Translations under genes and position numbers: made by a program
Notes under the pieces: model-generated
What the model was told of the DNA's origin: nothing
Seen by the model: the letters and a program-made list of their open reading frames with translations, nothing else
The model's database searches: none
Source: an uncultured Candidatus Saccharibacteria bacterium
Lineage (GTDB): Bacteria; Patescibacteriota; Minisyncoccia; Phycocordibacterales; Zambryskibacteraceae
Length of the DNA stretch: 64,000 nt
Direction of reading: 5' to 3'
Assembly: GCA_964582295.1 (NCBI GenBank)
Contig: CAZOQP010000001.1
Location: forward strand, 84,754-148,753
In this document: positions 22,476 to 49,112 of the stretch, in pieces
Layout of the letters: the number at the start of each line of letters is the position of its first letter
Numbering within the stretch: the first letter of the stretch is position 1

Positions 22476-22481
22476 TATCTG

Positions 22482-22552: not shown

Positions 22553-22574
22553 TTTATGAGCTTTTGAATTATAA

Positions 22575-22862
22575 CTACTCTGCCAATTTCTGCACCTCTT
22601 CAAAATTATCTTCCGGCCGTATGGCCGCATTTCGTTTGAAGCCGCATGAGATGCATTTGTGAATGATCGCAATAGCCACTCCCCCTTTCGTTTCCACCCC
22701 CACCGGTTTCATCATCCCTTCACATAGCTCTGCCCTGTCTCCGGGGTCAACATCCACATGCTTAGACCAGAGGCATTTCGGACAATGGTTGGTATACCCA
22801 TTCCCCTTCACCTCATTCCCGCAATTTTCGCAAATAAAATTTTCTTTGGTCCTTAAAAACAC
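22575..22862 (-). CDS. RNHCP-domain zinc-ribbon protein
   Basis: ORF 22575..22907 contains CENCG...YTNHCPKCLWSKH...CISCG. The track's TTG start lies inside tRNA-Gly(GCC), so the true start is probably the GTG at about 22862. Confidence 0.45.
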   Translation of the reverse strand: MFLRTKENFICENCGNEVKGNGYTNHCPKCLWSKHVDVDPGDRAELCEGMMKPVGVETKGGVAIAIIHKCISCGFKRNAAIRPEDNFEEVQKLAE

Positions 22863-22867
22863 TTTGT

Positions 22868-22938
22868 GCGGCCAGGGAGAATCGGACTCCCATCTCGTCC
22901 TTGGCAAGGACGCGTTCTACCACTAAACCATGGCCGCG
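22868..22938 (-). tRNA. tRNA-Gly (anticodon GCC)
   Basis: GCGGCCA acceptor stem, anticodon loop TTGCCAA, T-arm GGGAGTCCGATTCTCCC. Confidence 0.85.
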
Positions 22939-22987
22939 CATTAAGAACTCTAGCAAAAAAGCACTCCCCTCTCAATTATCAATTATG

Positions 22988-23058
22988 TCGGGCTGCTGGG
23001 AATCGAACCCAGTTCTTGCGAACCCGAATCGCATATACTACCGGTGTACTACAGCCCG
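22988..23058 (-). tRNA. tRNA-Pro (anticodon CGG)
   Basis: CGGGCTG acceptor stem, anticodon stem-loop TGCGA-TTCGGGT-TCGCA, T-arm CTGGGTTCGATTCCCAG. Confidence 0.8.
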
Positions 23059-23144
23059 TCTGTAGAACCTTCAGAATATATCACACAGGCCTTAAATAAA
23101 CATAAATTGAGAGTTTATCGGCTGTAACGTATGATGGCTCACAC

Positions 23145-23216
23145 GCACCCGTGGTGAAATGGATATCACAACGGTCTTCGGAACCGTTGTTGTGGGTTCG
23201 AATCCTGCCGGGTGCA
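23145..23216 (+). tRNA. tRNA-Arg (anticodon TCG)
   Basis: GCACCCG acceptor stem, anticodon stem-loop ACGGT-CTTCGGA-ACCGT, GGGTTCGAATCC T-loop region. Confidence 0.75.
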
Positions 23217-23237
23217 CACGCGAGAAAAACGCACTAG

Positions 23238-23308
23238 CGGGATGTAGTATAGCGGCAGTATTTACCCATGGGGTGGGTAAGGCCCGGGTTCAATTCCCGG
23301 CATCCCGA
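23238..23308 (+). tRNA. tRNA-Pro (anticodon GGG)
   Basis: CGGGATG acceptor stem, anticodon stem-loop TACCC-ATGGGGT-GGGTA, T-arm CCGGGTTCAATTCCCGG. Confidence 0.8.
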
Positions 23309-23358
23309 AATATCTAATTCCGTGCGCTCATGCCAAAACTTTGGCACTATGTAGGCAG

Positions 23359-23429
23359 CGGGACGTAGTATAGTGGCAGTATATATGCTTTGGGAGCATA
23401 GGGTCCGAGTTCGATTCTCGGCGTCCCGA
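23359..23429 (+). tRNA. tRNA-Pro (anticodon TGG)
   Basis: CGGGACG acceptor stem, anticodon stem-loop TATGC-TTTGGGA-GCATA, T-arm CCGAGTTCGATTCTCGG. Confidence 0.8.
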
Positions 23430-26848: not shown

Positions 26849-29047
26849 TTAATTGGAAGATGGATTGAGGGACTGGAGCAGAACTTTTAGAGCCTGGTAG
26901 ACACCAGCGATACCTGCTGAAAGGGATGGTCTTGAAGAAACTTCCAGAAGTTGGTCTTCTTCTTCCGAACCAGAGGATGGGTCTTCTGTTGGAGTAGTGC
27001 CTTGGGGGGAAACATTTACCGCCACACTATCTGAAACTGCTGTGCCGTTTGTACCCGAGCATGAGACTGCGAATACTCTGGTGCTGTAGAGGGAGGGTGA
27101 TGTACCGGATTGCGAAACTGTTGGTCCTGAATTGGATACGAAGGTGAGAGGATTGCTGCAGTAGGTAACATTGCTTGCCGTCCAAGACACGCTTACCATG
27201 CCACCGTACGCAACCGTAGCGGTGTTATCCGAACCATTTATTTTGAGGTCAATTGTAGGTCCGGAAGTTGTCGTGGTTTGCGAAGCAACATTCGCAACAA
27301 CACTTCTCGATGCGGATTGTCCGGCTGAATTCACACAGGTAAGAGTGATAGTGGTCGTCTGGGTAAGGGGACCGAACTGGAAACCGAATGCACTTAGATC
27401 TACTGTGTCGTACAGGTGAGAGGCGTTGAGGGAACACGAAGTGGCATTCGACGAGCTCCAGTTGAGAGGCGTGTAGCCATTGTATGGAGTGACGCTTGAT
27501 GACCCGAGAGTGAAGTAGCTAATGGAAGGAGCGGGAACATTTGTGGTTGGCGGCGAAGTAGTTGGAGGGGGGGGTGTTGTTGAAGATATAACGGCCACCG
27601 TTACAGATTTACTTGCCGATACCCCAACACTGTTGAAGCACGTCACCGTGTAGGTGGTCGTCTGGGACGGGTAGACATGGCTGATACCTGTGGTTTTTCC
27701 TGATTCCAAGCCAAAATTACTTGAGGAACAATAGCTCGCATTACTTGAATAAAAAGACAATGCAGATGACTGTCCGAGTGTAACTGTCGTTGGACTAGCT
27801 GTAAGGGTGACGAATGGCACAAGGAAAGTAGGGGTGCGAGTTGGCTCGGTAGCAAGAGAGACACGCACACTGTCTGACACTGTCTCTACAAGGAAACCGC
27901 GCGAATCAAACTTTTTGCAATCTATTGTGTAGGTGGTGTAGCCGTTCGGGTTCCACGATACATTTCCTACCGGATAGAAGCTTGAGCCCGCCGCATAGGC
28001 CGCAGTGTTGTTGTATTGTGCCGTCACCCCAGTTGCGAAAGCACCACTGATGACAGGATGTCCGCTCAAAGTACAGGCGCTTATGCCAGAGGATGCGGAC
28101 CACGCGAGATTAAGTGCTTGTCCTGAAGATAAAGTGACTGGCCCGTCCAAACCATTAGCTTTTATGTCTGCAGAAGATGCTGTGTTAGGAGTAGCTGGTG
28201 GAATTATAGTGGTTGGAGGGTTTGCTGGGGGAGTAGCGGGAGGAGTGGCTGGGGGAGTAGCGGGAGGAGTGGCTGGGGGAGTCGCGGGGATTACGGTTTC
28301 GCCCGGATGTAGATTCTGTCTGTCGAGGAAACTTTCAGAAACCCAGCCGTCCGCACCACCTACGAAGTCTATTCTCCACCATATATGACCGTCTCTTGTT
28401 ACCGGGCCTTGTATAACAGTGCCCCATCTGCCTGCCGGCTGCACACCAACTCGCGCAAAGCCAAGGCCAGAAGCGCTGCGCACATTCACCTGGTCATTGG
28501 TCTTCACAATGTCGCCAATCAGGAATTTAGCGGCGGTGCTAGTAACAGCCGGATTAGCGGGCGCTGTGCCGCTTGAAGTGTTGGCACACGCGAGCTCTTT
28601 CATTTTGGCGAGAGTGGCGGGGCCGGCTGTACCTCTTGCCTCCGTCCCAGATGACAAAGATACATTGACGCTGTAGGCGGTCTGGAAGTTACTTACGGCA
28701 GCATTCGTGTAAATACCGTAATATCCTGTCATGTTATCGGCAGTGAGAAGCCCTAGCGAATTCAGGAAACGCTGGAGATTAGTGACGCTTGCCCCACGAG
28801 AACCAATGGACAGGGTTTGCGTAGGGATGAGTTCGCACATAGATGAACCACCCACTGTAGGCCCCACCAAACCTTGCGCATCTGCAGCGGGAGCGGCCGC
28901 ACCAAACAGCATTACCGAAAGAACAAGGATGAGAGAGAATCGGTTGATAAGTTTCATAATAATTTTTGGCTGCTTATGGCCTCTGGCCTTATTTGTATTT
29001 TTATATTGTACTATCAAGCTCTCACCCAAGATTATTCCTGTCCCCAC
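26849..29047 (-). CDS. large secreted cell-surface protein with peptidoglycan-binding domain, SH3b-like domain, PATPP repeat linker and Ig-like repeats
   Basis: Signal peptide. PG_binding_1-like region (ASVTNLQRFLNSLGLL...GYYGIYTNAAVSNFQ). SH3b-like region (VNVRSASGLGF...WWRIDF). (PATPP)x5. Thr/Ser-rich beta domains. Confidence 0.55.
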   Translation of the reverse strand: MGTGIILGESLIVQYKNTNKARGHKQPKIIMKLINRFSLILVLSVMLFGAAAPAADAQGLVGPTVGGSSMCELIPTQTLSIGSRGASVTNLQRFLNSLGLLTADNMTGYYGIYTNAAVSNFQTAYSVNVSLSSGTEARGTAGPATLAKMKELACANTSSGTAPANPAVTSTAAKFLIGDIVKTNDQVNVRSASGLGFARVGVQPAGRWGTVIQGPVTRDGHIWWRIDFVGGADGWVSESFLDRQNLHPGETVIPATPPATPPATPPATPPATPPANPPTTIIPPATPNTASSADIKANGLDGPVTLSSGQALNLAWSASSGISACTLSGHPVISGAFATGVTAQYNNTAAYAAGSSFYPVGNVSWNPNGYTTYTIDCKKFDSRGFLVETVSDSVRVSLATEPTRTPTFLVPFVTLTASPTTVTLGQSSALSFYSSNASYCSSSNFGLESGKTTGISHVYPSQTTTYTVTCFNSVGVSASKSVTVAVISSTTPPPPTTSPPTTNVPAPSISYFTLGSSSVTPYNGYTPLNWSSSNATSCSLNASHLYDTVDLSAFGFQFGPLTQTTTITLTCVNSAGQSASRSVVANVASQTTTTSGPTIDLKINGSDNTATVAYGGMVSVSWTASNVTYCSNPLTFVSNSGPTVSQSGTSPSLYSTRVFAVSCSGTNGTAVSDSVAVNVSPQGTTPTEDPSSGSEEEDQLLEVSSRPSLSAGIAGVYQALKVLLQSLNPSSN
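28197..28290. repeat. in-frame tandem 24-nt repeat encoding the (PATPP)n linker
   Basis: GGGAGGAGTGGCTGGGGGAGTAGC repeated about 3.5 times within the CDS 26849..29047. Confidence 0.7.
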
Positions 29048-29048: not shown

Positions 29049-29969
29049 CTATTTGCGTCTTCCGTGGAACTTCTTATGTATTTCTTTCAAATGACTGTCA
29101 GTAAAGTGTGTATATATTTGTGTAGTGGAAATACTGGCATGGCCGAGAAGCATCTGAACGGAACGCAGGTCGGCCCCGTTCGAGAGTAGATCCGTGGCAA
29201 ACATGTGCCGCAAGACATGCGGAGTAACCTTCTTAGAGATACCGGCTTGGATTGCTCTATCCTTGATAATACGTTCAACGGAGCGACTTCCCAAGGGGCC
29301 TGCTACTTTCCCCATTTGAGTAATCCTCACTAGAAGCGCTTCTTCCATGTCCTTGCGAGCTTTCAAATAATCTTTGATAGCTTTGAGTGCCCCCTCGGAG
29401 ATAAAGACCACGCGGATTTTGCCACCCTTACCCTTGATAGGGAACTCGCCAGCCTGGAAATCAATATCTGTCGTGAGCGAACAAAGCTCGGAAACTCGCA
29501 AGCCGGTAGAAAAGAGCAATTCAAGAATTACTCGGTCCCGTAAATTCTTAATATCATCTCCTTTAGGTGAGTCCATGAGCCGGGCAAGCTCGGCGGGAGA
29601 GATGAGATCTAGATGTCTCTCGCTAACCTTAGCGAGGTCGATGTATTCTGCTGCTAGAGTCTTCACTCCCTGTTTGGCTAAGTACTTGAGGAAGGCCCTA
29701 AGAGCAATGAGGTAGTAGTTCTGGGTCTTCCTAGACAGAGTTTCATTGTGTGGCGACTTGTGGCCCGTAGATTGCCTGTTGAGCCAGAGGCGGAATTCCC
29801 GCACTGAATCAGCAGAAATATCCGAAGCATTCTTTATTTTGGAATGTTCCAGAAACCTTGAAAGGTACCTGTCGTAATTTTCAATAGTTTTGAGACTCCG
29901 GCCCTTTTCTATTTCCGTATATTCCAGAAATTGGCGCTTTAATTTTTCAAGTTCGGTTTGAGATGTCAT
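29049..29969 (-). CDS. xerC: tyrosine site-specific recombinase XerC/XerD family
   Basis: C-terminal catalytic region HVLRHMFATDLLSNGADLRSVQMLLGHASISTTQIYTH, carrying the RHRY-type residues. Confidence 0.8.
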   Translation of the reverse strand: MTSQTELEKLKRQFLEYTEIEKGRSLKTIENYDRYLSRFLEHSKIKNASDISADSVREFRLWLNRQSTGHKSPHNETLSRKTQNYYLIALRAFLKYLAKQGVKTLAAEYIDLAKVSERHLDLISPAELARLMDSPKGDDIKNLRDRVILELLFSTGLRVSELCSLTTDIDFQAGEFPIKGKGGKIRVVFISEGALKAIKDYLKARKDMEEALLVRITQMGKVAGPLGSRSVERIIKDRAIQAGISKKVTPHVLRHMFATDLLSNGADLRSVQMLLGHASISTTQIYTHFTDSHLKEIHKKFHGRRK

Positions 29970-31052: not shown

Positions 31053-32459
31053 ATGAATGGCGATAATACTCGCGAAAACACAGGACCTTCGGATGGTGCG
31101 AAAGAAATAAAACCCGTTTCCGGCACACCTCAATTTGAAGATGACACTGTGCAGGCGCTTCTCGCCAAAGCACGGGAAGAAGCTCAAAAAAGGGCTCGCA
31201 TAACAGAGCAAAGCGGGGGAGTAATGCCAAATGTGGTGCCTGGGGTAAGAACACAGATCCGTGAGGAAGCGCCGGGAGCAAAGATCGCCTCTCCGGCGGA
31301 ACCTGAACCGCAAACTATTGTTATTGAGAGTGAAGAGGTAAAAGAGCCGCAACCAAAGGCGCCTTTGGTTGCGGCTCAAACCCCGCCCCCGCCTTCTGTA
31401 CAAGAAATTCCCTCTATACCAACAGAGTCTCCAGTTGCCGCAGAGCCGGCATACAAATCTCCCCTTAAAAATCTGCGCACTTACCAGGGAGATGTGGCGG
31501 AGGCCCTGAAGGACAGCAATGCTTCAATGCTCTCTATCTCCCTTGCGGCACGAAAGAAAAAAGAAAAAGAGCCGCCACCCACACAAACACCAATTGAAAG
31601 AAAGCGGGAGAAGAAAAACACCATGCTTGCATTGAGTTCGGCACTCCTTTTGGTCATCGGCCTTTCAATATTGGGAAGTTTGTATTACGTACATGTCCAA
31701 AATCTTCCGGTGCCTGTCATTGAGCCGCCGCGAAGCATCATTAGTTTTGACAGAGAGACGGAAATTCTTTCGAATGGACTGACAAAAGAAAAATTCCTTT
31801 CTGTAGTGGAGGATATAAAGAACGACCCCAAAGAAAAAAATAAACCGGCCAGCAGCATCACCTATCTTCATATAGTAAAGCGCGCAAGCACTACTCCAAC
31901 TATCATCGTTACTGATTCCATAAACGGATCAGAATTTTTATCTTTACTGAAAAGCCGCGCCCCTATTTCACTTACGAGATCTTTCGTATCCTCTTTCATG
32001 CTCGGCCTTTATCGCGGCAGAAATAACGACGCTTTCATTCTTATAGAACTGTCTTCCTACGAAAATGCTTTTGATGGGATGCTTTCGTGGGAAAAAAATA
32101 TGTGGGGAGACATAGGTGCCTTGATGTCTCCGAAAATTATTTCTGTGGTGAGCGCACCGAATGCGCCTCTTGCAACAACAACCGCGAGCACTACAGCTGT
32201 TGCCACAACCACACCTGGGACAGTCGCCACAACAACAGCAACTACTACTCCTATAGTTCCTTTAGTCCCCGTAATATCAGTGAAAGAATCCTTCATTGAT
32301 AAGGTCATATCAAACAAGGACACAAGGGTGCTTTCCACTTCCTTCGGGGAAACTGTCCTGGTTTACGGCTTTGTAACCAAGGACCTCCTTCTCATAGCAT
32401 CATCGGAGGAAACCTTTAAAGCTATACTTGACAGGGCTTTCGCCGCAGAAGCCCAATAG
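31053..32459 (+). CDS. membrane-anchored hypothetical protein with Pro-rich N-terminus and Thr-rich segment
   Basis: Single TM (LALSSALLLVIGLSILGSLYYV). Low-complexity ATTTASTTAVATTT region. Confidence 0.4.
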   Translation: MNGDNTRENTGPSDGAKEIKPVSGTPQFEDDTVQALLAKAREEAQKRARITEQSGGVMPNVVPGVRTQIREEAPGAKIASPAEPEPQTIVIESEEVKEPQPKAPLVAAQTPPPPSVQEIPSIPTESPVAAEPAYKSPLKNLRTYQGDVAEALKDSNASMLSISLAARKKKEKEPPPTQTPIERKREKKNTMLALSSALLLVIGLSILGSLYYVHVQNLPVPVIEPPRSIISFDRETEILSNGLTKEKFLSVVEDIKNDPKEKNKPASSITYLHIVKRASTTPTIIVTDSINGSEFLSLLKSRAPISLTRSFVSSFMLGLYRGRNNDAFILIELSSYENAFDGMLSWEKNMWGDIGALMSPKIISVVSAPNAPLATTTASTTAVATTTPGTVATTTATTTPIVPLVPVISVKESFIDKVISNKDTRVLSTSFGETVLVYGFVTKDLLLIASSEETFKAILDRAFAAEAQ

Positions 32460-32895: not shown

Positions 32896-34458
32896 ATGAG
32901 CTTTGCGAAAGTACACAGCGCTCAAACAAGAATGCTTTCCGCAGACATCATTGATGTAGAAGTGGATCTTTCGCGCGGACTTCATTCATTTTCAATAGTG
33001 GGCTTGCCCGACAAAGCAACCGAAGAAGCCAAGGACCGCATAAGTGCCGCCATAAAAAATTCCGGTTTCACTTCTCCCAAACAGAAAAATCAGAAAATAG
33101 TCATTGCACTCGCCCCGGCCGAGATAAAGAAAGAGGGTTCAGGTTTTGATGTGGCGATGGCGCTCGGATATCTGATGGCAATAGGCGATCTTGAAGAGAG
33201 TATGGAAAAAGATGCATTGTCGGCGGAAGAAGTGCTGAAGAAAACAGTATTTTTGGGAGAGCTTTCTCTAGATGGCATCTTGCGGCCTGTCAAAGGAGCT
33301 ATTGCCCTTGCGCAAGTAGCCCGCACCAACGGTTTCGCGGAAGTAGTGGTTCCTTTTGAGAACAGGGAGGAAGCGGCGCTCATTGACGGCATAAATGTCA
33401 TCCCTGCTCGCACGCTCACTGACGTTATTAATCATGTGCGCGGCGAAAAGATTCCGACACAGCCAAAGACCGAAGTGAAATTCCCGGAACGAGAAGAAGA
33501 AATAACATTTGATGATATCGCAAGCCAGGAAAGTGCAAAAAGAGCCCTTCTCATAGCGGCGGCAGGCATGCATAACATTGGCCTTTACGGCCCGCCCGGC
33601 ACAGGAAAAACCATGCTCGCGAAAGCTTTCCGTTCTCTTTTGCCACCGCTCTCTGACGACGAGATATTGGAAGCCACGAGTATTCATTCCATTGCCGGCA
33701 CTTTGAAAGAACCGTATATGGTGGAGCCGCCTTTCCGCTCTCCGCATCACACAGCATCTTACGTGGCGCTTGTTGGCGGTGGAGCAAATGTGAGACCGGG
33801 TGAGATTACTTTGGCGCACAGAGGGGTTCTGTTTTTGGATGAATTCGCAGAATTTGAAACACGCGTACTTGAAACTTTGCGTGAGCCGCTTGAAGAAAGA
33901 AAAATTTCCGTATCACGAGCAAAAGGAAGCGCCGTTTTTCCCGCGCATTTCATATTGGTAGCAGCTCTCAATCCATGCCCTTGCGGAAACCGGGGATTCA
34001 AAGGACCTGCGTGCGTCTGCGCAGGGAAAGATCTGATGCGATATGAAAGAAAGATATCAGGGCCGATACTTGACCGTATTGATATGTGGATTTCAGTACC
34101 GCGAATAGAGCATGAAAAACTGCTTTCAAAAAATGAGAACAAAGAAAATGAAAGGTTCAAAGAGGAAGTGAAAAAAGCGAGAGCGAAGCAAAGAGAAAGG
34201 GCAGGAAAATTAGGCTTGCAGGGTATGTGGAACGGAGCTTTAGGGGTGCGAGACGTGGTGAGGCATCTCACTTTGTCTGAAAACATTAAAAATGTTCTGA
34301 ACAATGCGGCAAAAACAATGAATCTTTCGCCGCGCGGATATCACAAAGTGGTAAAACTCGCGCGAACCATTGCGGATGTTAAAGAAAGAGAAAATATAGA
34401 AGAAGAGGACATTTTGGAAGCGCTAAGCTTCAGACCTCCGAAGACTGCTTTGGGATGA
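32896..34458 (+). CDS. comM: Mg-chelatase-like AAA+ ATPase YifB/ComM family
   Basis: Lon-like N-domain, Walker A GPPGTGKTMLAKA, Mg-chelatase subunit ChlI-like core and C-terminal domain. Confidence 0.85.
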   Translation: MSFAKVHSAQTRMLSADIIDVEVDLSRGLHSFSIVGLPDKATEEAKDRISAAIKNSGFTSPKQKNQKIVIALAPAEIKKEGSGFDVAMALGYLMAIGDLEESMEKDALSAEEVLKKTVFLGELSLDGILRPVKGAIALAQVARTNGFAEVVVPFENREEAALIDGINVIPARTLTDVINHVRGEKIPTQPKTEVKFPEREEEITFDDIASQESAKRALLIAAAGMHNIGLYGPPGTGKTMLAKAFRSLLPPLSDDEILEATSIHSIAGTLKEPYMVEPPFRSPHHTASYVALVGGGANVRPGEITLAHRGVLFLDEFAEFETRVLETLREPLEERKISVSRAKGSAVFPAHFILVAALNPCPCGNRGFKGPACVCAGKDLMRYERKISGPILDRIDMWISVPRIEHEKLLSKNENKENERFKEEVKKARAKQRERAGKLGLQGMWNGALGVRDVVRHLTLSENIKNVLNNAAKTMNLSPRGYHKVVKLARTIADVKERENIEEEDILEALSFRPPKTALG

Positions 34459-34468
34459 AGACGTCGCT

Positions 34469-34634
34469 CAGATAATACCCTTTTTCACACAGCAGTCGCT
34501 CGGGGTGATGACGAAAAGAGTACGCATAAAAATCTGCTGATTTTTTGCTCACCCTCGCGCCGTCGCGCTGCACAGCCTCTTTTCGTCATCACCCCTCGCT
34601 CTAAATAACTCTAGTGTGAAAAAGGGTATTATCT
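34469..34634. repeat. nested palindromic MITE-like repeat element B, copy 1 (outer IR AGATAATACCCTTTTTCACAC/GTGTGAAAAAGGGTATTATCT; inner 25-bp stem GTCGCTCGGGGTGATGACGAAAAGAG)
   Basis: Inner 108 bp is 98% identical to 59469..59576. The left edge CACACAGCAGTCGCTCGGG is shared with the reverse complement of element A. Confidence 0.7.
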
Positions 34635-34666
34635 TCGCTTCTTAAGTACCAGAACTTAAAGCGAGG

Positions 34667-34699
34667 AAAATATACGTAGGACAGTCCTACGTATATTTT
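34667..34699. terminator. bidirectional terminator (serves the M23 peptidase gene on the minus strand)
   Basis: ATATACGTAGGAC-AGT-CCTACGTATAT hairpin with T-tracts on both strands. Confidence 0.55.
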
Positions 34700-34733
34700 G
34701 TAGCGGAGGACATGACTCGCTCCTTAAGTAAAA

Positions 34734-39175: not shown

Positions 39176-39991
39176 ATGAAGAACCTCCTTTCAGACAAGA
39201 TAACGGTGGCACTTTCCGCATCAATACTCATTTTGAGCGGAAGCACCGGCTATGCGATAGCACAAAGCCCCCGTTCCGACACCTCTCCTTTGGGGATCCG
39301 GACCGAAAATGAAAAGCAGGACATTGGAAGCCTTATAAGCGCAGAAAACGTGGAAAACTCGGTAAGCGATAACTCATCGCTTTTCACTCCAAGCACTTTC
39401 ACGGCACGTTTCGGCCAAAACGCTTTTTCCCGATTTGTACAAGCATCTCAAAGAGAGGAGGAGGTAAATGCTTCCGACATCATGGAGATCTCTAACAAGG
39501 TGGCTTCAGATCTGGCAGCAAACAGCAATATTAAGTTTACAGAATACTCCTTGGTAGACCTCTCCATAATTTCTGCTCCTACCACAAGCGACTGGCAGAA
39601 ATTCATTTCTGACATAAACACAATACGCAGCAAATATGCTTCGATATTCCGCTCTTCCACAAATTTAGGAGGTCTGGCGACACTTGGCCCAAATAATATC
39701 CCCTCAATACTCAAGGCCGGAGATCTATATTCTCAAATGGCCGAGGAGCTTTTGACAACCCCGGTGCCCGCGCCGGCCTTACAAAGTTTTTTAAAGTTGG
39801 TAAATGCTTATTCAAAAGCGGCTGCAGGACTACCCGCGTTTAAATATCTATCTGATGATCCAGTAAGAGTGATCCCCGGCCTAAGTTTGTATTCGGAAAG
39901 CCAAGACGATGAGTCCGCAGCGCTTAGTGAAATCCAGGTTCTTCTTATAAGCAATGGTATAATTTTTTCTGGGACATACCTCGCTCCCTAA
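39176..39991 (+). CDS. secreted hypothetical protein (first gene of T4SS-like operon)
   Basis: Signal peptide MKNLLSDKITVALSASILILSGSTGYAIAQ. No known motifs. Confidence 0.4.
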   Translation: MKNLLSDKITVALSASILILSGSTGYAIAQSPRSDTSPLGIRTENEKQDIGSLISAENVENSVSDNSSLFTPSTFTARFGQNAFSRFVQASQREEEVNASDIMEISNKVASDLAANSNIKFTEYSLVDLSIISAPTTSDWQKFISDINTIRSKYASIFRSSTNLGGLATLGPNNIPSILKAGDLYSQMAEELLTTPVPAPALQSFLKLVNAYSKAAAGLPAFKYLSDDPVRVIPGLSLYSESQDDESAALSEIQVLLISNGIIFSGTYLAP

Positions 39992-39994
39992 AGC

Positions 39995-41812
39995 ATGAAA
40001 AAGAAAATTTTACTTTTTATACTCTTATTCTCTATATTGGGAAGTCTTTTAATTCCATCAACTACCCAGGCCCAGGGAATAAATATCCCACCACTTACCG
40101 GACTTAGCGAAACTATTCCTCCTGTACCCGTAGGAGATGCTGCCATAAGGAAAAAAGAGGTGGGCTTTACTATTTTTGGAATAGACACGGGTATTTCATG
40201 GGACAGCATAGTGATTATGCTTGGCAGGGCGATGCTAGACAACATATTTGACAGTATGACCGACTGGGTGAACCGCGGATTTGAAGGCAATCCGACTTTC
40301 GCAACAGATCTTAATGATTATTTGTCTAAGGTTGGGGATGTTGTGATAGGAGACGCCTTGAATGAAATAACCAACGGCTTCGCCTGTGAGCCTTTTCGCC
40401 TGGAGATAAGAGCTGCCATAGAAAGAGACTTCGGGGCCGGGGGGCAAGGCAAAATTTTCAAAAACTCCTGCACTTTGAGCGAGATAGAAGCGAACGTGGA
40501 TAATTTTTTGGATGGAAGTTTTGTTGATGGCGGGTGGCCGGCATGGTTCAGGATAACCCAAGTTGATGAGAACAATCCTTACGGCTCATATTTAGAAGCA
40601 AGAGGCGCCATCACTGCAAGTATTGAAGGAGCGCGAAGTGTGGAGCTTGCTAAATTAAGCTGGAGCCAGGGATTCATAGATACACGTGAATGCCTGGAAT
40701 ATCAGACGACCGTAATGATGACAGCGGCAGGTCCTGTTCCTGTTCCTACACAGATATGTAATAAATGGGGGCCGGTAAAAACCCCCGGTGCAGTTATTGC
40801 AAACCAGGTAAATAAACAATTCGGAGCATCAACAGATCAGTTAATAACTGCAGACGAATTGGACGAATTTTTCGCGGCTGTCGTAAACCAGCTCCAGAAC
40901 ATGGTGTTCAGTAGAGATGGAATATTCCGTACGGGAGGAGCACCAAGAATTTCAGGAGCGGCAGGAGATTACAATAGACAGCCGTTCGATCTAGGAACAG
41001 GAGCTTGCACAGTCGAACCCCCCGCACCGATCGTGGTAGGTAGTGACACCACATGGAGAATAACAACTGCCGTAAACGGATCGAATCCTCAATATGTATG
41101 GAGTGGTACGGATATGAGTTCCACCACCAACGCATCCTCGCTAAAGGTTTCTTACTCAATACCCGGCGACAAAAATATGTCGGTTACCCTTTCATATGAC
41201 GAGATCGATCAATCTCAAAGTCCTGATCCAACAACTGGTCAGTATCCGACAACACGAAAAACCCAGAATGTTTCTTGCCCCACCATTCTCGTAACCCCAC
41301 CACCTCTTGCTATTTCATGCATATTAGCTCCACTGGTTATAAACTCTCCTTCCTCTACAAATCATCGTATCTCCCCTACAGATCAAAATGACAGCGTGTG
41401 GGATGGCCCGAATGATCCGGATAATATGTATGCGAGGTACAGGAACGGCACCCTTACGGAAACTGATAAAAAATATCTGGTGGTCTGGCAGGTCACTATC
41501 TCGGGCGGCTCAGGCAAACTTGACCGTATTACTGTCGAAAAGGATAGCGGTATCAATATTGGTGTGAACAGCCAGCTCCCTCCATATCTTCCGAGCCTTA
41601 ATTACTCCCCGGCAGCCGGTATCCCTGTTCAAGGCAACCCCCCATCTATCACCTTAAGACTGCCGGCCTGGTATGAAGAGAGTAATATATTTGCAAGACA
41701 GAACTTAAATGTTGATAAAACCTTAAGAATAAGCGTTCTTGATTCAGATCAGAGCATTGCGAACGGCTTTGTGAACCAATCCTGCCAATCCGTTAAAGTA
41801 ATAGGCCCATAG
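39995..41812 (+). CDS. secreted hypothetical protein, 605 aa
   Basis: Signal peptide MKKKILLFILLFSILGSLLIPSTTQAQG. Gap of 4 nt from the upstream gene. Confidence 0.4.
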   Translation: MKKKILLFILLFSILGSLLIPSTTQAQGINIPPLTGLSETIPPVPVGDAAIRKKEVGFTIFGIDTGISWDSIVIMLGRAMLDNIFDSMTDWVNRGFEGNPTFATDLNDYLSKVGDVVIGDALNEITNGFACEPFRLEIRAAIERDFGAGGQGKIFKNSCTLSEIEANVDNFLDGSFVDGGWPAWFRITQVDENNPYGSYLEARGAITASIEGARSVELAKLSWSQGFIDTRECLEYQTTVMMTAAGPVPVPTQICNKWGPVKTPGAVIANQVNKQFGASTDQLITADELDEFFAAVVNQLQNMVFSRDGIFRTGGAPRISGAAGDYNRQPFDLGTGACTVEPPAPIVVGSDTTWRITTAVNGSNPQYVWSGTDMSSTTNASSLKVSYSIPGDKNMSVTLSYDEIDQSQSPDPTTGQYPTTRKTQNVSCPTILVTPPPLAISCILAPLVINSPSSTNHRISPTDQNDSVWDGPNDPDNMYARYRNGTLTETDKKYLVVWQVTISGGSGKLDRITVEKDSGINIGVNSQLPPYLPSLNYSPAAGIPVQGNPPSITLRLPAWYEESNIFARQNLNVDKTLRISVLDSDQSIANGFVNQSCQSVKVIGP

Positions 41813-41818
41813 GACAAT

Positions 41819-44149
41819 TTGTGTGGACGGCGCGTCCAATTTTTGTCCTTTATCGGATACTATAGGAGTATGAGTTCTTCATGGAAAATACTAATTTCCT
41901 GCTTTTTGGTGTTTTCAATGGCAACAATAGTTTTCCTTCCTTTACCCGCCCACGCTCTATCTCTATTCGGTTTTGCTGCGGGGGCTATCGAGAGTGCGGT
42001 CGCGACACTTGCAAACATGGTTTTGAAGTTCTTTGCTTTCCTGTTGGGAATATGCGCTGTACTACTAGATTACTCCTTGAATCTTACGGTAGTACAGCTA
42101 AGTGAAAACCTCAAAAGTCTTACTGCTATAAACGAAACATGGTCCACCATAAGAGACTTAATAAACCTTTCATTCATATTCATTCTCCTCTTCGCAGCAA
42201 TACGCACAATTCTTGGGCTGGAATCTCCTGTAAAAGTAATAAAAAATATTGTACTCGCTGCGCTCTTCATAAATTTTTCCATGTTCTTCACGCGCGTGAT
42301 GATAGACGCCTCAAACTCTGTAGCCCTGTTCTTTTATGAACGTATAACTTCGGCAATTGTTGACACGAGTGGTTTGGGATCCGCAGCAAATATGTTATTG
42401 AGCGAGCGAGGGAAAACTTTAAGCGCCCTGTATGCCAATCCGCTTAGACTGGGAACTTTATACAAAGCGGCAGACGGAACCGCATCCCAGGTCGTAAATT
42501 CCACAAACATATACACTATCGGACTTATGGGCTCTATGATGCTCGCTTTAGTGGCTTTCGTATTTTTAACCATAGCCATAATGTTTGTTATCCGCTATGC
42601 CGCACTTATTGTTCTTCTGATATTTTCGCCGCTTGGTTTCATAAGCAAGGATCTGCCGATGATAGGGGAGTACAACCAGCAATGGTGGGGTATGCTCAAA
42701 TCACAACTCTTGTTTCCGCCCGTGTTCATGATAATGACCTGGATAACGATCAAGGTCATAAACTCGCCAGGCATTCTGGGGATATGCAAGGACCCGGGAG
42801 ATTGTAATTTTAGAGGCGCTTTGGCAGCAAGCGGGGATATTCCTGATGTGAGTGGAGTGGGCCTCATGATAAATTTTGCGGTAATAATGGCGCTCATCGT
42901 GATGTCTCTTCTTATATCAATTCAGACCGCATCCAAGGGAGCGGAGGCATTTTCAGGTCTCTACAAAAAGGCCAGCAAATGGGCAGGAGGTGCCATGTTT
43001 GGCGGCGCATCTCTTATCGGAAGACAGACGTTTGGTAGGGGATCGGAGATGCTGAAAAATACCAATATGTACACGAAGTGGGAGGCGAAATCTAAGGACA
43101 GTATGATGGCCCGTCTTGCTCTGAACACGGTAGACCAGACCAGGACCGGTTCCATGGACACGCGTGGTTCAAAGTTTGGAAAAGCATTTGCCGGGATGAC
43201 GGGCCTTGATGCGGGAGAAGCTGTGGGACAAGGTGGATTTGAAGCAGATAGAAAGGCCTACAAAGAATATTTTGCAAGACCTGGCTCAGAAGCTAAAAGG
43301 GAGAGGGACGAAAGAGCGGCTAAAGCTACGGCCGTGCTCGACATTGAGGCAGCTCAGGATCTTGATCCGGCTCAAATTGATGCAATAAGAGCTCTCGTAG
43401 GACCTCGAACACCCGACCAGCAGGAAATGGTAGATAAGATGGACAAAATGGAAAAAGCCCTTGCACGCATGACGGATAAGGAGGTGGAGGCAATAGTATC
43501 AAGCAACAAGAAACTTCTTGATAAAGAAGCATTTGCTCAAAAATTAAGCGTTCAACAACTGGAAACTATAAATAAGAGCGATAAATTCTCGGATGAAGAA
43601 AAGAGGGTCTTCAACGACAACCGCTTCAAGCAAATATCCTCAATTATTGAGGCCGCCCAAAGGACTGGAACACCAATTAGTTCTACTGATGCCAAAAAGA
43701 TTGCTGGACTTACAGATAAAGAACTTGAATACGTACCTTCAGACATCATCAACAATAAAAACTTCGTCGGAGCGTTGCGATCTTCACATATGGACTACGT
43801 AAAGAAGAGCACCAAATTCACATCTTCACAGAAAGATGCGATTAAGAATTCTCGCCAGGACGCTCTATTAGGTAGAGTCCAAACTACTCCGTCAGAAATA
43901 GCTAAATTAGATCCAAAAGACGTGGCCAGTCTATTTGACCGGGGAGTACTTACGGATCCTATATATCTAGAACATCTTAATCCTAAAAAGTTAAAGAGTA
44001 TTGGTAAGGAAATAGACGATGAGAGGAAAATAGATCAGATAAAAGCCGCAATTACTGCAGCACCTGGAGGCCCGGCAGGAGGCCCTCCAACAGGAATAGA
44101 TAGATTACAGACATGGCAAGGAAGCCCGGACTATCAAAATAATTTCTAA
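41819..44149 (+). CDS. VirB6/TrbL-like (TcpH/ConG-type) polytopic membrane protein with large C-terminal hydrophilic coiled-coil domain
   Basis: About 8 predicted TM helices in the first ~400 aa. A ~370-aa charged C-terminal region ends in a Pro/Gly-rich tail. This architecture is typical of Gram-positive T4SS VirB6 homologs. Confidence 0.5.
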   Translation: MCGRRVQFLSFIGYYRSMSSSWKILISCFLVFSMATIVFLPLPAHALSLFGFAAGAIESAVATLANMVLKFFAFLLGICAVLLDYSLNLTVVQLSENLKSLTAINETWSTIRDLINLSFIFILLFAAIRTILGLESPVKVIKNIVLAALFINFSMFFTRVMIDASNSVALFFYERITSAIVDTSGLGSAANMLLSERGKTLSALYANPLRLGTLYKAADGTASQVVNSTNIYTIGLMGSMMLALVAFVFLTIAIMFVIRYAALIVLLIFSPLGFISKDLPMIGEYNQQWWGMLKSQLLFPPVFMIMTWITIKVINSPGILGICKDPGDCNFRGALAASGDIPDVSGVGLMINFAVIMALIVMSLLISIQTASKGAEAFSGLYKKASKWAGGAMFGGASLIGRQTFGRGSEMLKNTNMYTKWEAKSKDSMMARLALNTVDQTRTGSMDTRGSKFGKAFAGMTGLDAGEAVGQGGFEADRKAYKEYFARPGSEAKRERDERAAKATAVLDIEAAQDLDPAQIDAIRALVGPRTPDQQEMVDKMDKMEKALARMTDKEVEAIVSSNKKLLDKEAFAQKLSVQQLETINKSDKFSDEEKRVFNDNRFKQISSIIEAAQRTGTPISSTDAKKIAGLTDKELEYVPSDIINNKNFVGALRSSHMDYVKKSTKFTSSQKDAIKNSRQDALLGRVQTTPSEIAKLDPKDVASLFDRGVLTDPIYLEHLNPKKLKSIGKEIDDERKIDQIKAAITAAPGGPAGGPPTGIDRLQTWQGSPDYQNNF

Positions 44150-44157
44150 AATAATCC

Positions 44158-44787
44158 ATGATAATCTCCAAAGAAAAAAGACGAGCTGCATACCAACAAC
44201 TTCCTGAAAAAATCAGAGAATATATTTCATCTGGCGGCAGTATAGAAAAAACAGATACCCTAGCGCAAAAATTTTCCTTAACCCCAAATCAGGACATTGT
44301 CCTTGATGACGAGATCACTCTTGTTCTTATGGGACTTGAAACGAAAGACGATATGCTTGCATCACTTCAGGAAAAGACGGGGATTGGAAAGAACAAGTGC
44401 CTGGAAATAATAATGGAAGCTGATAAATTTATTTTTCAGCAATTCAAACAGTGGATACCAAAACAAAATCAGGGGGCAATTAAACTAAATGCCCTAGAAC
44501 AATTGCCTCAACAACTGAAAACAATAAAGCTCCCAGATGGAGCAGCGGGTTCTTTGCCGGACCACGAAGAGATAATTAAAAATCCTATCGTAATGCCATC
44601 CAATCCTGTAATTGCAGCTGCACCAGTACCCCAAAAACCTGAAGCATCTAAGAATCTGCCTCCGATAGATAATCTTTCATGGGAAGAGAGGAAAAAGCGT
44701 GCTGAAGAAGCCCTGAAAAACATAGCGCCTACGGAAAACAAAAAGTACCCAGGCGGAGCAGATCCCTACAGGGAGCCAATCTCGTAA
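44158..44787 (+). CDS. hypothetical soluble protein in T4SS-like operon
   Basis: ORF only, tightly packed in the operon. Confidence 0.4.
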   Translation: MIISKEKRRAAYQQLPEKIREYISSGGSIEKTDTLAQKFSLTPNQDIVLDDEITLVLMGLETKDDMLASLQEKTGIGKNKCLEIIMEADKFIFQQFKQWIPKQNQGAIKLNALEQLPQQLKTIKLPDGAAGSLPDHEEIIKNPIVMPSNPVIAAAPVPQKPEASKNLPPIDNLSWEERKKRAEEALKNIAPTENKKYPGGADPYREPIS

Positions 44788-44802
44788 GCAGAGCTTACGA
44801 GA

Positions 44803-45261
44803 TTGGCGGGTTATAATATCTTTATGCGTTTTCAAGTACCACAGTTCATTGAAGTTGAAGACAAGATATTCGGACCCTTCACGTTCAAACAATTCGTTTA
44901 TCTTGCAGGTGGGGCAGGGATGATAGCTATTGCCTTCACGTTTCTTCCTAAGTTCTTGGCTTTTCTTGTAGCCCTTCCTATTGCAGGACTTGCGGCAGCC
45001 CTTACTTTTTACAAAGTGAATAACCGTCCTTTCATTTACACACTGGAGGCATACCTCAACTATCTGCTCACTAAAAAACTTTTCGTATGGAAAACCAGGC
45101 AAAGGACGGCGCAAGCCCATCCTTCGGCCGACACAAATTCTGAAAGACCGCAGGTGCAAGTGCCTAAAATTTCAGGGAGCAGACTTCGCGACCTTACATG
45201 GGATCTGAGCGTTAAAGGACGGACCGACATAAATCAAACAAAAGACACGGATACCGTTTAA
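44803..45261 (+). CDS. VirB3-like / TcpE-like small 2-TM protein
   Basis: FGPFTFKQFVYLAGGAGMIAIAFTFLPKFLAFLVALPIAGLAAALTFY. Two TM helices, directly upstream of the VirB4 genes as in Gram-positive T4SS. Confidence 0.4.
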   Translation: MAGYNIFMRFQVPQFIEVEDKIFGPFTFKQFVYLAGGAGMIAIAFTFLPKFLAFLVALPIAGLAAALTFYKVNNRPFIYTLEAYLNYLLTKKLFVWKTRQRTAQAHPSADTNSERPQVQVPKISGSRLRDLTWDLSVKGRTDINQTKDTDTV

Positions 45262-45291
45262 TACTATAATTACGGCTGGAGAATATTCACA

Positions 45292-45924
45292 ATGCCAATA
45301 TCCGCACAATCTACACAAGACTTCGTACCTATAAAAGACGTGCGCGACGGAGTCGTCATTTTAAAAGACGGAGGATTGAGAAGTATCCTGATGACATCAT
45401 CTGTCAATTTTTCCCTGAAGTCGGAGGACGAGAAGACCGCCATCATTTATCAGTTCCAGGATTTTCTGAATTCCCTTGATTTCTCAGTGCAAATACTGAT
45501 GCAGTCCCGCAAGCACGACATCAGACCTTACTTGGCTCTCCTTGAAGGCCGCAAAAAAGAGCAGATGAACGATCTTTTGAAGATCCAAATACAGGAATAC
45601 ATAGAGTTCATAAAAACTTTTACAGAACGCCAGAACATAATGACGAAAAGTTTTTTCGTGGTAGTGCCCTATACTCCGAATGCCCTTAATAACTCCAATT
45701 TCATGCAGAAAGTCATGCCTGGAAAAGGAACACCCACCCAAAAGAAAGAAGGGAAATTTGAAGAGGACGTCGTTCAGCTTGATCAGCGCCTCTCTGTTGT
45801 AATGCAGGGGCTTTCGCGCTGCGGCTTGCGAGCAGTTCGCCTTGGCACAGAAGAGGTAATCGAGCTTTTCTACAAAGTTTTCAACCCCGGGGAAACAGAG
45901 AAGCCGATCCAGATGCAATCATAA
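45292..45924 (+). CDS. VirB4-family N-terminal domain protein (separate ORF)
   Basis: FVPIKDVRDGVVILKDGGLRSILMTSSVNFSLKSEDEKTAIIYQFQDFLNSL resembles the N-terminal region of Gram-positive VirB4/TrsE/ConE ATPases. Ends with TAA 2 nt before the next ATG, in a different frame. Confidence 0.45.
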   Translation: MPISAQSTQDFVPIKDVRDGVVILKDGGLRSILMTSSVNFSLKSEDEKTAIIYQFQDFLNSLDFSVQILMQSRKHDIRPYLALLEGRKKEQMNDLLKIQIQEYIEFIKTFTERQNIMTKSFFVVVPYTPNALNNSNFMQKVMPGKGTPTQKKEGKFEEDVVQLDQRLSVVMQGLSRCGLRAVRLGTEEVIELFYKVFNPGETEKPIQMQS

Positions 45925-45926
45925 AT

Positions 45927-47765
45927 ATGTCTTTCCTAGATATTTTCAAATCAAAAAATAAAGAGGGGAATGCACCAGCGCCCGGCAATATTCTTCCTAA
46001 AGAAGTGTACGACTCAAGTGTGCTTGACCTTAAAGACATCATCGCACCAAGCGCTCTTAAGATAGGCCAGAAGCATCTTGATCTCGGAGACAAAGTGGTT
46101 AGAAGTTTTTTCGTAATTTCTTATCCGCGCTTTCTTGCAGAAGGATGGTTCGCCCCCATCATCAATCTGGACAAGGTTTTTGACGTTTCCATATTCGTAC
46201 ACCCAGCTGAAACCTCAACCGTATTAAGGCAATTCCAAAAGAAAGTGGCTGAAGTCCAAAGCCAGATACACGAAAGGGAGGAGAAGGGCCTGGTTCGCGA
46301 TCCTATGCTTGATGTGGCTTACCAGGACCTTGAAAATCTCCGCGATCAGCTTCAGCAGGCGCAGGAACGCCTCTTTGATGTCGGCCTTTACATCTCTATT
46401 TACGCGGACAATGAATCAGAGCTAGACAAAATAGAATCCGAGATGAAATCCATCCTTGAAGCGAAGATGGTGTATATTAAGCCCGCACTTTTCCAGCAGA
46501 ATGACGGCTTCGCTTCCTCTCTTCCTATCTGCGAAGATGCACTCAAAGTAAACCAGAAGCTCAATTCTTCGCCTTTATCATCTCTTTTCCCGTTCATTTC
46601 CTTTGACCTCACATCAGACCGCGGCGTACTTTACGGAATAAACCGCCACAATTCATCCCTCGTCTTGTTTGATCGCTTCTCTCTTGAAAACTACAACTCC
46701 ATCACCTTCGCAAAATCCGGTGCCGGAAAATCTTATGCGACCAAGCTTGAAATATTGCGCTCCCTTATGTTCGAGACCGATGTCATTGTCATTGATCCGG
46801 AGCGTGAATACGAATACCTGGCAGAAGCCGTGGGTGGGCGCTACTTCAACATTTCCCTCAATTCGGAGCACCACATAAACCCCTTTGAATTGCCGCTTCC
46901 CGGGCCTGATGAATCGGCTGCAAGCGTTTTGCGTTCAAACATTGTGAATCTGGTGGGGCTTTTCCGACTAATGCTCGGAGGACTTACCCCAGAAGAGGAT
47001 GCTCTTATAGACAGAGCATTAAGCGAAACATATGCCCTCAAAGACATCACTCCCGATTCCGATTTCAGAAATATAGAGCCACCACTTCTTTCAGACTTTG
47101 AGCTGGTGCTTTCAGGGCTTGAGGGAGGAGAATCTCTTGCACAGCGCCTTTCCAAATACACCAAAGGAACTTGGGCTGGCTTCATCAACCGCCCTTCTAA
47201 TGTGGATATCAACAAAAAATTCGTGGTCTTTTCTCTCCGCGATATGGAAGATGAACTGAAGCCTATTGCCATGTACATCGTGACCCACTTCATATGGAGC
47301 GCCGTCAGAAAGGAGTTGAAGAAACGCCTGCTTGTCATAGACGAGGCATGGTGGATGATGAAATCAGAAGACACAGCATCTTTCCTTTTGAACATGGCAA
47401 AACGTGGCAGAAAATATTTCCTGGGGCTTGCAACCATCACCCAAGACGTTGACGACTTCCTGAAATCGCCCTACGGAACGCCTATTATCACAAACTCGTC
47501 CATTCAAATACTTTTAAAACAATCCCCGACGGCAATCGACCGTCTTCAGGAGGTCTTCAATCTGACAGATGAAGAAAAATATCTCCTTCTTGAATCAGGG
47601 GTAGGAGAGGGCATTTTCTTCGCAGGTCTCAAGCATGTCGCCATAAAAATAATCGCCTCCTACACAGAAGACCAGATAATCACTTCCGACCCATCACAGC
47701 TCCTCGCTATCGCAAAATCAAAACAGGAAGCTAAAAATACAAATGAAGGAACGGCGATTCTCTAA
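45927..47765 (+). CDS. virB4: type IV secretion VirB4-family ATPase
   Basis: YPRFLAEGW N-domain motif, Walker A AKSGAGKSY, Walker B LLVIDEAWWMM (the VirB4 DEAW motif), and the C-terminal ATPase core. Confidence 0.8.
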   Translation: MSFLDIFKSKNKEGNAPAPGNILPKEVYDSSVLDLKDIIAPSALKIGQKHLDLGDKVVRSFFVISYPRFLAEGWFAPIINLDKVFDVSIFVHPAETSTVLRQFQKKVAEVQSQIHEREEKGLVRDPMLDVAYQDLENLRDQLQQAQERLFDVGLYISIYADNESELDKIESEMKSILEAKMVYIKPALFQQNDGFASSLPICEDALKVNQKLNSSPLSSLFPFISFDLTSDRGVLYGINRHNSSLVLFDRFSLENYNSITFAKSGAGKSYATKLEILRSLMFETDVIVIDPEREYEYLAEAVGGRYFNISLNSEHHINPFELPLPGPDESAASVLRSNIVNLVGLFRLMLGGLTPEEDALIDRALSETYALKDITPDSDFRNIEPPLLSDFELVLSGLEGGESLAQRLSKYTKGTWAGFINRPSNVDINKKFVVFSLRDMEDELKPIAMYIVTHFIWSAVRKELKKRLLVIDEAWWMMKSEDTASFLLNMAKRGRKYFLGLATITQDVDDFLKSPYGTPIITNSSIQILLKQSPTAIDRLQEVFNLTDEEKYLLLESGVGEGIFFAGLKHVAIKIIASYTEDQIITSDPSQLLAIAKSKQEAKNTNEGTAIL

Positions 47766-48102: not shown

Positions 48103-48109
48103 TAGAAAT

Positions 48110-49111: not shown

Positions 49112-49112
49112 T

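Follow-up and report, generated by a model that had tools for sequence, protein, structure and literature searches.

A family of nested hairpin repeats bounded by a TCGCTC hexamer in the chromosome of a Minisyncoccia bacterium

The stretch of 64,000 nucleotides analysed here (the window) is chromosomal DNA of a Patescibacteria/Minisyncoccia (Parcubacteria) bacterium. Two hairpin repeats, A and B, each occur in two copies between its genes, and the four copies have been found to belong to one family built on a single scaffold. The basic unit of this family is a hairpin with a TCGCTC hexamer in the same orientation on both sides. The full element is a "Russian doll" in which an inner unit lies in the loop of an outer unit, the two being joined by two conserved junction modules. 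With a probability of roughly 0.55, this is a lineage-specific, non-autonomous palindromic intergenic repeat family of the same kind as repetitive extragenic palindromes (REPs), bacterial interspersed mosaic elements (BIMEs), miniature inverted-repeat transposable elements (MITEs) and ERIC (enterobacterial repetitive intergenic consensus) elements. Such a family would be mobile and would have a likely incidental 3'-hairpin effect on messenger RNA (mRNA). The observations that fit it are hairpins bounded by hexamers, a near-identity between two B copies that is bounded by the same hexamers and has flanks resembling an empty site, conserved junctions combined with freely varying stems, and the presence, absence and inversion of inserts among relatives.

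Repeat B was recovered in a repeat search of the window as a 107-nt direct repeat, B1 (34495-34601) and B2 (59471-59577), in which 105 of 107 positions are identical (98%). An earlier note on this DNA had described a near-identical palindrome of 108 bp; the repeat is real and has two mismatches as described, but it measures 107 nt and had been placed about 2 nt off. The mismatches are at 34504 (G/A) and 34591 (A/G). The identity begins with the letters G-TCGCTC, ends with TCGCTC and is lost sharply on both sides. The note had also proposed a 25-bp stem, GTCGCTCGGGGTGATGACGAAAAGAG, with a 56-nt loop. The loop length was correct, but only 19 bp pair (GGGGTGATGACGAAAAGAG / CTCTTTTCGTCATCACCCC, 19/19 complementary in B1), and the outer letters, (G)TCGCTC to the left of it and TCGCTC to the right, form direct repeats and not paired arms. 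Two small internal hairpins lie within the loop. B1 is itself flanked by an inverted repeat, AGATAATACCCTTTTTCACAC, which is complementary at all 21 positions, as had been reported. Folded as RNA, the 181-nt B1 region is predicted to reach -84 kcal/mol (z = -10.9), and a 186-nt stretch folded as DNA is predicted to reach -50 kcal/mol (z = -10.6), values that lie far outside what chance would give. The junctions ComM-B1, RuvC-A2 and A1-TIM were recovered in independent Logan assemblies of this organism (SRR6868922; L121, L131, L133), and the structure is therefore not an assembly artefact.

The flanks of the B copies resemble each other and a third site. B1 is bounded on its outermost sides by GAC-G-TCGCTC ... 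TCGCTT-CTTAAGTA (ACG/.../CTTAAG). The flanks of B2, AC-G-TCGCTC ... TCGCTC-CTTGAG (ACG/.../CTTGAG), match these as well as an uninterrupted motif at 34714, further along the spacer that holds B1. The 98% identity of B1 and B2 may reflect transposition, and gene conversion or a partial duplication could also have produced it.

Alignment of B1 and B2 (plus strand) with A1 and A2 (minus strand) gave a single scaffold common to all four. Its 5' half reads G-TCGCTC (hexamer h1), a 21-nt outer 5' arm, CAGCAG-TCGCTC(h2)-GGG, nine variable nucleotides plus AAAAGAG, and the loop. Its 3' half reads CTCTTTT plus nine nucleotides, CYC-TCGCTC(h3)-TAAATARCTCTAG, the outer 3' arm and TCGCTT (h4). B1 and A2 are complete, A1 is partial and B2 consists of the inner unit only (Table 1); the part lost from A1 is now taken by a -10-like box and the ribosome-binding site of the TIM gene. 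The left module, CAGCAGTCGCTCGGG, which the earlier note had recognised in B and in the reverse complement of A, is present at 1415-1429 (minus strand), 34490-34504 (plus strand) and 59701-59715 (minus strand) with 0, 0 and 1 mismatch respectively, followed by a stem ending in AAAAGAG. The superfamily of hairpin repeats proposed from it has been borne out, in that A and B form one family with conserved junctions and compensated stems, a member of which also occurs in two relatives (L122 and L138). The module may act as a recognition site, as had been suggested. B2 and A2 were correctly seen to lie side by side; they are arranged tail to tail at 59.47-59.74 kb with a gap of 13 nt. Three features go beyond that description: a second shared module, CTCRCTCTAAATARCTCTAG, found twice although chance would give 0 copies; a homologous outer stem in A2; and four co-oriented TCGCTY hexamers in each full element. 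The junction modules are 93-100% identical among copies, and the combined inner pattern matches exactly the four copies in the window. A scan of ~200 kb of Minisyncoccia DNA, on both strands, for a hexamer, a hairpin of at least 14 bp and a second hexamer in the same orientation matched only known units with no false positives, and it recovered outer and inner hairpins alike.

The stems vary in sequence and keep their pairing. The outer arms of B1 and A2 (AGCCAACAGTATCTTTCAAAC in the latter) have 13 of 21 positions in common, and each is complementary to its own partner. Over both helices of the window copies, both partners have changed in 14 of 40 pairs, and pairing holds in 96.8% of cells compared with ~50% when partners are slid. 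With the L122 member included, 10 of the 19 pairs of the inner helix are compensatory and 98.9% of cells pair. The 9-bp stem segment is known in four unrelated versions, GTGATGACG, AATCCTGCC, AGTCCCACT and CACTCAATT.

This architecture has much in common with classical MITEs that are moved by a DDE transposase, produce a 6-bp target duplication and have become nested in one another. Each hairpin has terminal inverted repeats (arms of 19-21 bp, in elements of 107-177 nt with no transposase gene) flanked by direct copies of TCGCTC, and the elements are shorter than 200 bp and fold into long hairpins; together these features make up the standard MITE signature (PMC3184786). The terminal repeats of MITEs, however, are common to a parent insertion sequence (IS) and its copies, whereas the arms differ completely between subfamilies here. 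Four different "terminal repeats" (A-inner, B-inner, A-outer and B-outer) and a fifth in L122 all have the same flanking hexamer, and the conserved parts lie outside the arms, whereas the reverse would be predicted for a transposase binding to terminal repeats. No parent IS was found in the ~77 kb of this genome that were examined, namely the window and a further 12.5 kb reached through the Logan contig SRR6868922_1393. Direct TCGCTC flanks every unit and an uninterrupted look-alike site exists, as target duplication would have it, yet the same imperfect pair of h1 (TCGCTC) and h4 (TCGCTT) is found in both A2 and B1. Classical MITEs are a rather doubtful explanation.

A covariance model was built from the four window copies and run on relatives, the nearest of which have only 70-73% ComM identity in a collection of 5.8 billion proteins. 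In L122 (71% ComM identity) a member was found at 3856-3928 on the minus strand (40.6 bits, E ~1e-8). It reads TCGCTC-GGG-CACTCAATT-AAAAAAG-(23-nt loop)-CTTTTTT-AATTGAGTG-CCC-TCGCTC. The flanks are those of A and B (TCGCTC-GGG ... CCC-TCGCTC), but the stem sequence is a fourth one. A XerC-like integrase gene precedes the member, which is in sense orientation and begins 2 nt beyond the stop codon of that gene. In L138, which shares 90% ComM identity with L122, the element is kept after the same integrase gene with 4 differences in ~50 nt. The corresponding window spacers hold no family member, and the copies of the window and of L122 therefore lie at non-orthologous sites. The flanking GTCGCTC recurs as its reverse complement, GAGCGAC, in the loop of the L122 member. 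Another L122 hairpin, at 2643-2729, lies 1.2 kb from the first, and the two flank an Exo_endo_phos gene. It scored 24 bits with the covariance model; plain alignment to A2 or B1 was not significant. The two L122 hairpins have a 31-nt loop in common (29/31) and entirely different stems, and the second one has no hexamers; it is regarded only tentatively as a family member or "empty outer unit".

The spacer between ComM and LysM, which contains B1 in the window, is syntenic among these relatives. Its length ranges from 21 bp in L122 through 196 bp (L138), 200 bp (L127) and 229 bp (L125) to 275 bp in the window. The L122 spacer (11525-11545) has no insert and the L138 spacer (7754-7949) has one. 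A nested palindromic element unlike A or B occupies the spacers of L127 (11528-11727) and L138 in opposite orientations, with ~81% identity over the alignment. The differences in length, the presence and absence between L138 and L122 and the inversion between L127 and L138 show that gain, loss and inversion of palindromic inserts have taken place at this spacer among members of the clade. B1 itself showed no significant similarity to the L127 spacer and marginal similarity to the L125 spacer (9/500 shuffles).

The comparison with relatives also concerns the idea that nothing here is mobile and that local terminator-like palindromes arose in place and were homogenised by gene conversion or template switching among a few loci. 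Few copies are known, many unrelated perfect palindromes occur in intergenic regions of this DNA (17094-17133, 62084-62127 and 34667-34699), and perfect stems are consistent with quasipalindrome correction. However, palindromes arising in place would not be expected to have non-palindromic junction modules of 15 nt and 20 nt conserved between loci 25-58 kb apart, or to have a relative at an unrelated site in another genome, and the hairpins of the family have no U-tracts. This explanation is quite improbable.

Every copy of the element is intergenic, and the full copies begin 0-4 nt past stop codons in sense orientation. B1 begins 4 nt after the stop codon of ComM, A2 directly after that of RuvC (59743-59745) and A1 3 nt after that of a gene encoding a PilB-like T2SSE ATPase (1459-1461). 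The exception is B2, which lacks the outer arms, is antisense to the local genes and adjoins A2. This placement is the starting point for an alternative in which the family is a cis-acting structured RNA, that is, a conserved element of 3' untranslated regions (3' UTRs) or intercistronic regions that is kept by selection and is duplicated only by rare accident. It might be an mRNA stabiliser, a processing site or a protein platform with four single-stranded UCGCUC sequences. The position of all full copies and of the L122/L138 member (after ComM, RuvC, PilB-like and XerC-like integrase genes) would be explained by such a role, as would the retention of the L122 member in L138 and the near-constancy of the junction modules next to A1/A2 stem changes that are all compensated transitions.

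Several observations weigh against a mobile repeat. A1 and A2 are ~87% identical and are old copies with compensated stem changes. Between them, 8 of 18 positions of the 9-bp segment have changed compared with 10 of 89 elsewhere (Fisher p = 0.002), and these changes are four fully compensated transitions, as would fit selection that has acted on the structure over a long time. G-U wobbles are biased 5:1 towards one strand, the sense strand of the upstream gene; element orientation follows the gene and not the direction of replication. Both observations lean towards a role at the RNA level. Because the h1/h4 pair is identical in A2 and B1, it is an inherited scaffold and does not represent fresh target duplications. 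The known copies number four at three loci in ~77 kb, plus one or two in the relative. The earlier note had recommended a search for a cognate transposase, and no transposase, RAYT, IS200, TnpB or IS was found in the window or in the 12.5 kb beyond it (L131/L132). No match to the element was obtained by blastn against phages and plasmids, and scans of viral sequences gave 0 matches. A metagenome scan with the full inner pattern also gave 0 matches, the pattern having required AAAGAG/CTCTTT so that it would miss the AAAAAAG/CTTTTTT of the L122 type. Since A1 and A2 are old copies, the "recent mobility" that had been proposed for these repeats is limited at most to B.

Nevertheless, a structured RNA does not account for B2, which is antisense, lacks outer arms and is 98% identical to B1. 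Nor does it account for copies that are non-orthologous between the window and L122, or for a ComM spacer that is empty in L122. There is no Rfam match, and the hairpins are not followed by a U-tract terminator. Intrastrand template switching can also produce covariation in a perfect DNA palindrome, with no need for selection on RNA. The sense placement, wobbles and compensated changes could equally represent purifying selection on where and how inserts are tolerated. A structured RNA is the alternative to be taken most seriously, and it is unlikely.

In a non-autonomous mobile repeat, an enzyme whose gene lies elsewhere would copy the units in trans. This enzyme would recognise the folded hairpin together with the conserved junction sequence and would cut or join at TCGCTC, and its action there would create an apparent target duplication. 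Nesting would come about when a unit is inserted into a resident unit's TCGCTC-bearing loop. The composite as a whole could then have spread as a unit to give A1, A2 and B1, which would explain why the same imperfect h1/h4 pair is found in A2 and B1. B2 would have arisen in one of two ways: by recent copying of just the inner unit, or by loss of both arms from a composite through recombination between hexamers 1 and 2 and between hexamers 3 and 4. A transposase of the HUH/Y1 type that recognises single-stranded hairpins (RAYT or IS200/IS605-like) is the preferred, though unproven, candidate for the enzyme. Full copies would be co-transcribed as very stable 3'-UTR or intercistronic hairpins, because a stop codon precedes each of them by 0-4 nt and their orientation is sense. 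REPs have been shown to be co-transcribed and to stabilise the upstream mRNA (PMC3116915; PMC3337134; PMC3184786), and by analogy the hairpins described here probably protect the mRNA 3' end incidentally.

The family falls into the behavioural class of REP/BIME/REPIN, ERIC and MITE elements without the defining features of any named family (PMC3116915; PMC3337134; PMC3184786). Like the REP, BIME and REPIN elements that RAYT Y1 transposases mobilise in Proteobacteria, its members are short intergenic hairpins at gene 3' ends and between convergent genes, are single or form mosaics of inverted units with conserved linkers, and are long-lived in the lineage. A hairpin-recognising HUH enzyme would need such conserved sequence at the foot of a variable hairpin. 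Genomes with REPs or REPINs have tens to hundreds of copies and a single-copy RAYT gene that is usually flanked by the repeats. The tail-to-tail arrangement of B2 and A2, the three successive hairpins of the B1 spacer and the conserved junction modules place the family in the structural class of BIMEs. Unlike in REPs and REPINs, there is no conserved GTAG foot, its place being taken by TCGCTC-GGG ... CYC-TCGCTC, and GTAG occurs by chance beside A1 only. The stems are nested and 19-21 bp long compared with doublets of 10-15 bp, a direct hexamer bounds each unit, neither the window nor L131/L132 yielded a RAYT, very few copies are known and the host is a Patescibacterium.

ERIC/IRU, Correia, RUP and BOX elements are likewise modular, imperfect palindromes of 100-180 bp in transcribed intergenic regions. 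They have size variants that arise from internal insertion or deletion at fixed points, and effects on mRNA stability have been reported for them (PMC3184786). The present family differs from them in that it has no sequence similarity to them, is flanked by TCGCTC and not TA, and is conserved at its junctions and not in terminal repeats. Palindrome-associated transposable elements (PATEs) derived from IS200/IS605 also consist of a hairpin and a short specific flank on one strand and have no internal transposase, and because they insert beside a fixed short target, mimicry of a duplication is possible in them. Unlike the single symmetric hairpin with the same hexamer on both sides that is seen here, PATEs have distinct left and right subterminal hairpins and cleavage sites and insert 3' of a fixed tetra- or pentanucleotide without a true duplication, and no TnpA or TnpB was seen here. 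A precedent for nesting is given by IS1397 and ISKpn1, which insert into BIME loops (cited in PMC3184786) and thus target the centre of resident palindromes. In those cases the inserted DNA is a full IS with a transposase gene, whereas here it is a small hairpin.

Nine-nucleotide variable segments between conserved sequences could also be the specificity determinants of a guide or programmable RNA, such as the tigRNA of TIGR-Tas systems, the bridge RNA of IS110 or the non-coding RNA of retrons. TIGR systems have 9-nt spacers and occur in parasitic bacteria (PMC12045711). In B, the variable stem segment at 34505-34511 contains GUGAUGA, the box C consensus, and the loop contains CUGA. A C/D-box identity for B was considered, and the GUGAUGA was judged coincidental: permissive Rfam matches are below threshold (E 3-5) and the motif is conserved neither in A nor in the L122 member. 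The two 9-mers of a unit are, moreover, mutually complementary and lie within a perfect stem. The copies are dispersed single units and not an array, whereas TIGR-Tas arrays have tandem units of ~36 nt, each made of an edge, spacer A, a loop and spacer B, beside a Nop-domain Tas gene. No Nop-domain or Tas gene, IS110 recombinase or reverse transcriptase was detected nearby. A programmable RNA is very improbable indeed. It is likewise doubtful, slightly more so than for MITEs, that the scaffold is the substrate of an undescribed Minisyncoccia-specific protein, either a hairpin-recognising recombinase or nuclease or an RNA-binding protein. In that case the variable 9 bp would be a specificity or identity code and nesting would be programmed insertion. 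This reading is based on the four co-oriented hexamers, on both junction modules and on the 9-bp segment, which is hypervariable in sequence although its pairing is never lost. If it were true, the family would be a new class of mobile or regulatory element and not an analogue of REPs or MITEs.

Further searches for matches and copies were carried out. No further copy is present in the additional 12.5 kb of the Logan contig. No Rfam family reaches its gathering threshold at the elements, only tRNAs pass it in the window, and permissive searches returned generic hairpin noise. A metagenome scan with the right module gave two chance matches only (L129 and L130). A scan of genome contigs with the short 16-mer ACAGCAGTCGCTCGGG gave 120 chance matches in unrelated phyla, none of them with the second module. 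The elements contain no open reading frame of note, and the open frames of B, translated and concatenated, had no match among the 5.8 billion proteins. Prediction over the window found no promoter signal or U-tract terminator coinciding with the elements; intrinsic terminators are GC-rich short-loop hairpins followed by a T-run. The integron attC site, which has R''/L''-L'/R' boxes and a GTTRRRY core and belongs to arrayed cassettes with an IntI gene, was also compared: there is no GTTRRRY core and no array, and the only tyrosine recombinase (29049-29969) is XerC/D-like and syntenic in relatives. Retron, bridge RNA, ribozyme, TIGR-Tas, C/D-box RNA and attC identities were all considered and rejected.

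Patescibacteria, members of the candidate phyla radiation (CPR), have very small and gene-dense genomes. A search of the literature for dispersed repeats in Patescibacteria found no description. A persistent, structured repeat family that is shared between genera and is gained, lost and flipped at fixed spacers shows that tiny genomes, too, contain selfish or regulatory DNA resembling REPs. Short-read assemblies are broken by such repeats. Each of the three Logan contigs reaching an element stops within it. These contig ends were considered as a sign of more copies and rejected as such, since one contig also stops in an ordinary terminator palindrome. The rule of hexamer, hairpin and hexamer, together with the covarying 9-bp stem, is a precise searchable signature that could lead to the responsible enzyme.

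Table 1. Positions of the repeat copies, their parts and the neighbouring hairpins in the window.
Feature	Position	Strand	Remark
B1 hexamer h1 (G-TCGCTC)	34463-34469	+	4 nt past ComM stop codon TGA 34456-34458
B1 outer stem 5' arm AGATAATACCCTTTTTCACAC	34470-34490	+	21/21 complementary to 34614-34634
B1 left junction module CAGCAG-TCGCTC-GGG, including hexamer h2 34496-34501	34490-34504	+	three window copies, at most 1 mismatch
B1 inner stem 5' arm (GGG + 9 variable nt + AAAAGAG)	34502-34520	+	
B1 terminal loop, 56 nt, two small hairpins	34521-34576	+	
B1 inner stem 3' arm	34577-34595	+	19/19 complementary
B1 right junction module CTCGCTCTAAATAACTCTAG, including hexamer h3 34596-34601	34595-34614	+	found twice; chance expectation 0
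B1 outer stem 3' arm	34614-34634	+	complementary to 5' arm
B1 hexamer h4 (TCGCTT)	34635-34640	+	
Two further hairpins in ComM-LysM spacer	34633-34699	+	CUUCGCUUCUUAAGU...ACUUAAAGCGAGG (34633-34666); terminator-like one at 34667-34699
Uninterrupted GAC-TCGCTC-CTTAAGTA	34714-34730	+	resembles B1/B2 flanks with nothing inserted
B2, inner unit only (h2 to h3): G-TCGCTC, 19-bp stem with 2 imperfect pairs, 56-nt loop, TCGCTC	59471-59577	+	
A2 full composite	59591-59742	-	h1 59736-59741; h4 59591-59596
A2 outer arms	59715-59735 / 59597-59617	-	left module 59701-59715
A2 inner arms	59683-59701 / 59638-59656	-	right module 59617-59636
A1 composite, right module and 3' outer arm lost	1343-1455	-	h1-like CCACTC 1450-1455; h3-like TCGCTA 1343-1348
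A1 outer 5' arm	1429-1449	-	left module 1415-1429; inner arms 1397-1417 / 1349-1369

In the ComM-LysM spacer of the window, the last 100 nt contain the two further hairpins and the uninterrupted hexamer motif. The hairpin at 34667-34699 is perfect, with 16 bp and A and T tracts like those of a bidirectional terminator, and is a unit separate from B1. It is one of several perfect palindromes of 16-20 bp that are unrelated to the A/B family, the others being at 17094-17133, 62084-62127 and 31344-31377. The one at 17094-17133 spans 40 nt, has no loop and lies upstream of the trigger-factor gene.

The genes of the window include housekeeping genes, dnaA and dnaN, a tRNA cluster and a cluster resembling a type IV secretion system (T4SS). 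The genes yidC, rnpA, dnaA and dnaN lie together at 51277-55288, and for this reason the region of the replication origin is probably inside the window near 52.4 kb; GC skew is weak. Six tRNA genes (two Gly, three Pro and one Arg) are found on both strands at 22481-23429. The T4SS-like cluster covers ~12 kb of mostly unannotated genes (39176-51284) with PrgI-like and VirB4/TraC-like matches and is partly syntenic in relatives. The Exo_endo_phos and XerC-like integrase genes are adjacent in L122, L125 and L127. Between these genes in the window, a 732-aa protein whose sole domain is peptidoglycan-binding is encoded at 26849-29047 on the minus strand. The PilB-like T2SSE ATPase genes at 1459-3207 and 62128-63855 (minus strand) are paralogues with short identical stretches, and the Logan contig L133 breaks inside the second of them. 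The 334-bp intergenic region between the start of RuvB and the stop of this second PilB-like gene contains a predicted multi-branched fold on the minus strand (61830-62075; -71.7 kcal/mol, z = -3.8). The fold is closed by a 25-nt long-range inverted repeat (61871-61895 / 62011-62035), has no Rfam match and may be an unannotated small RNA.

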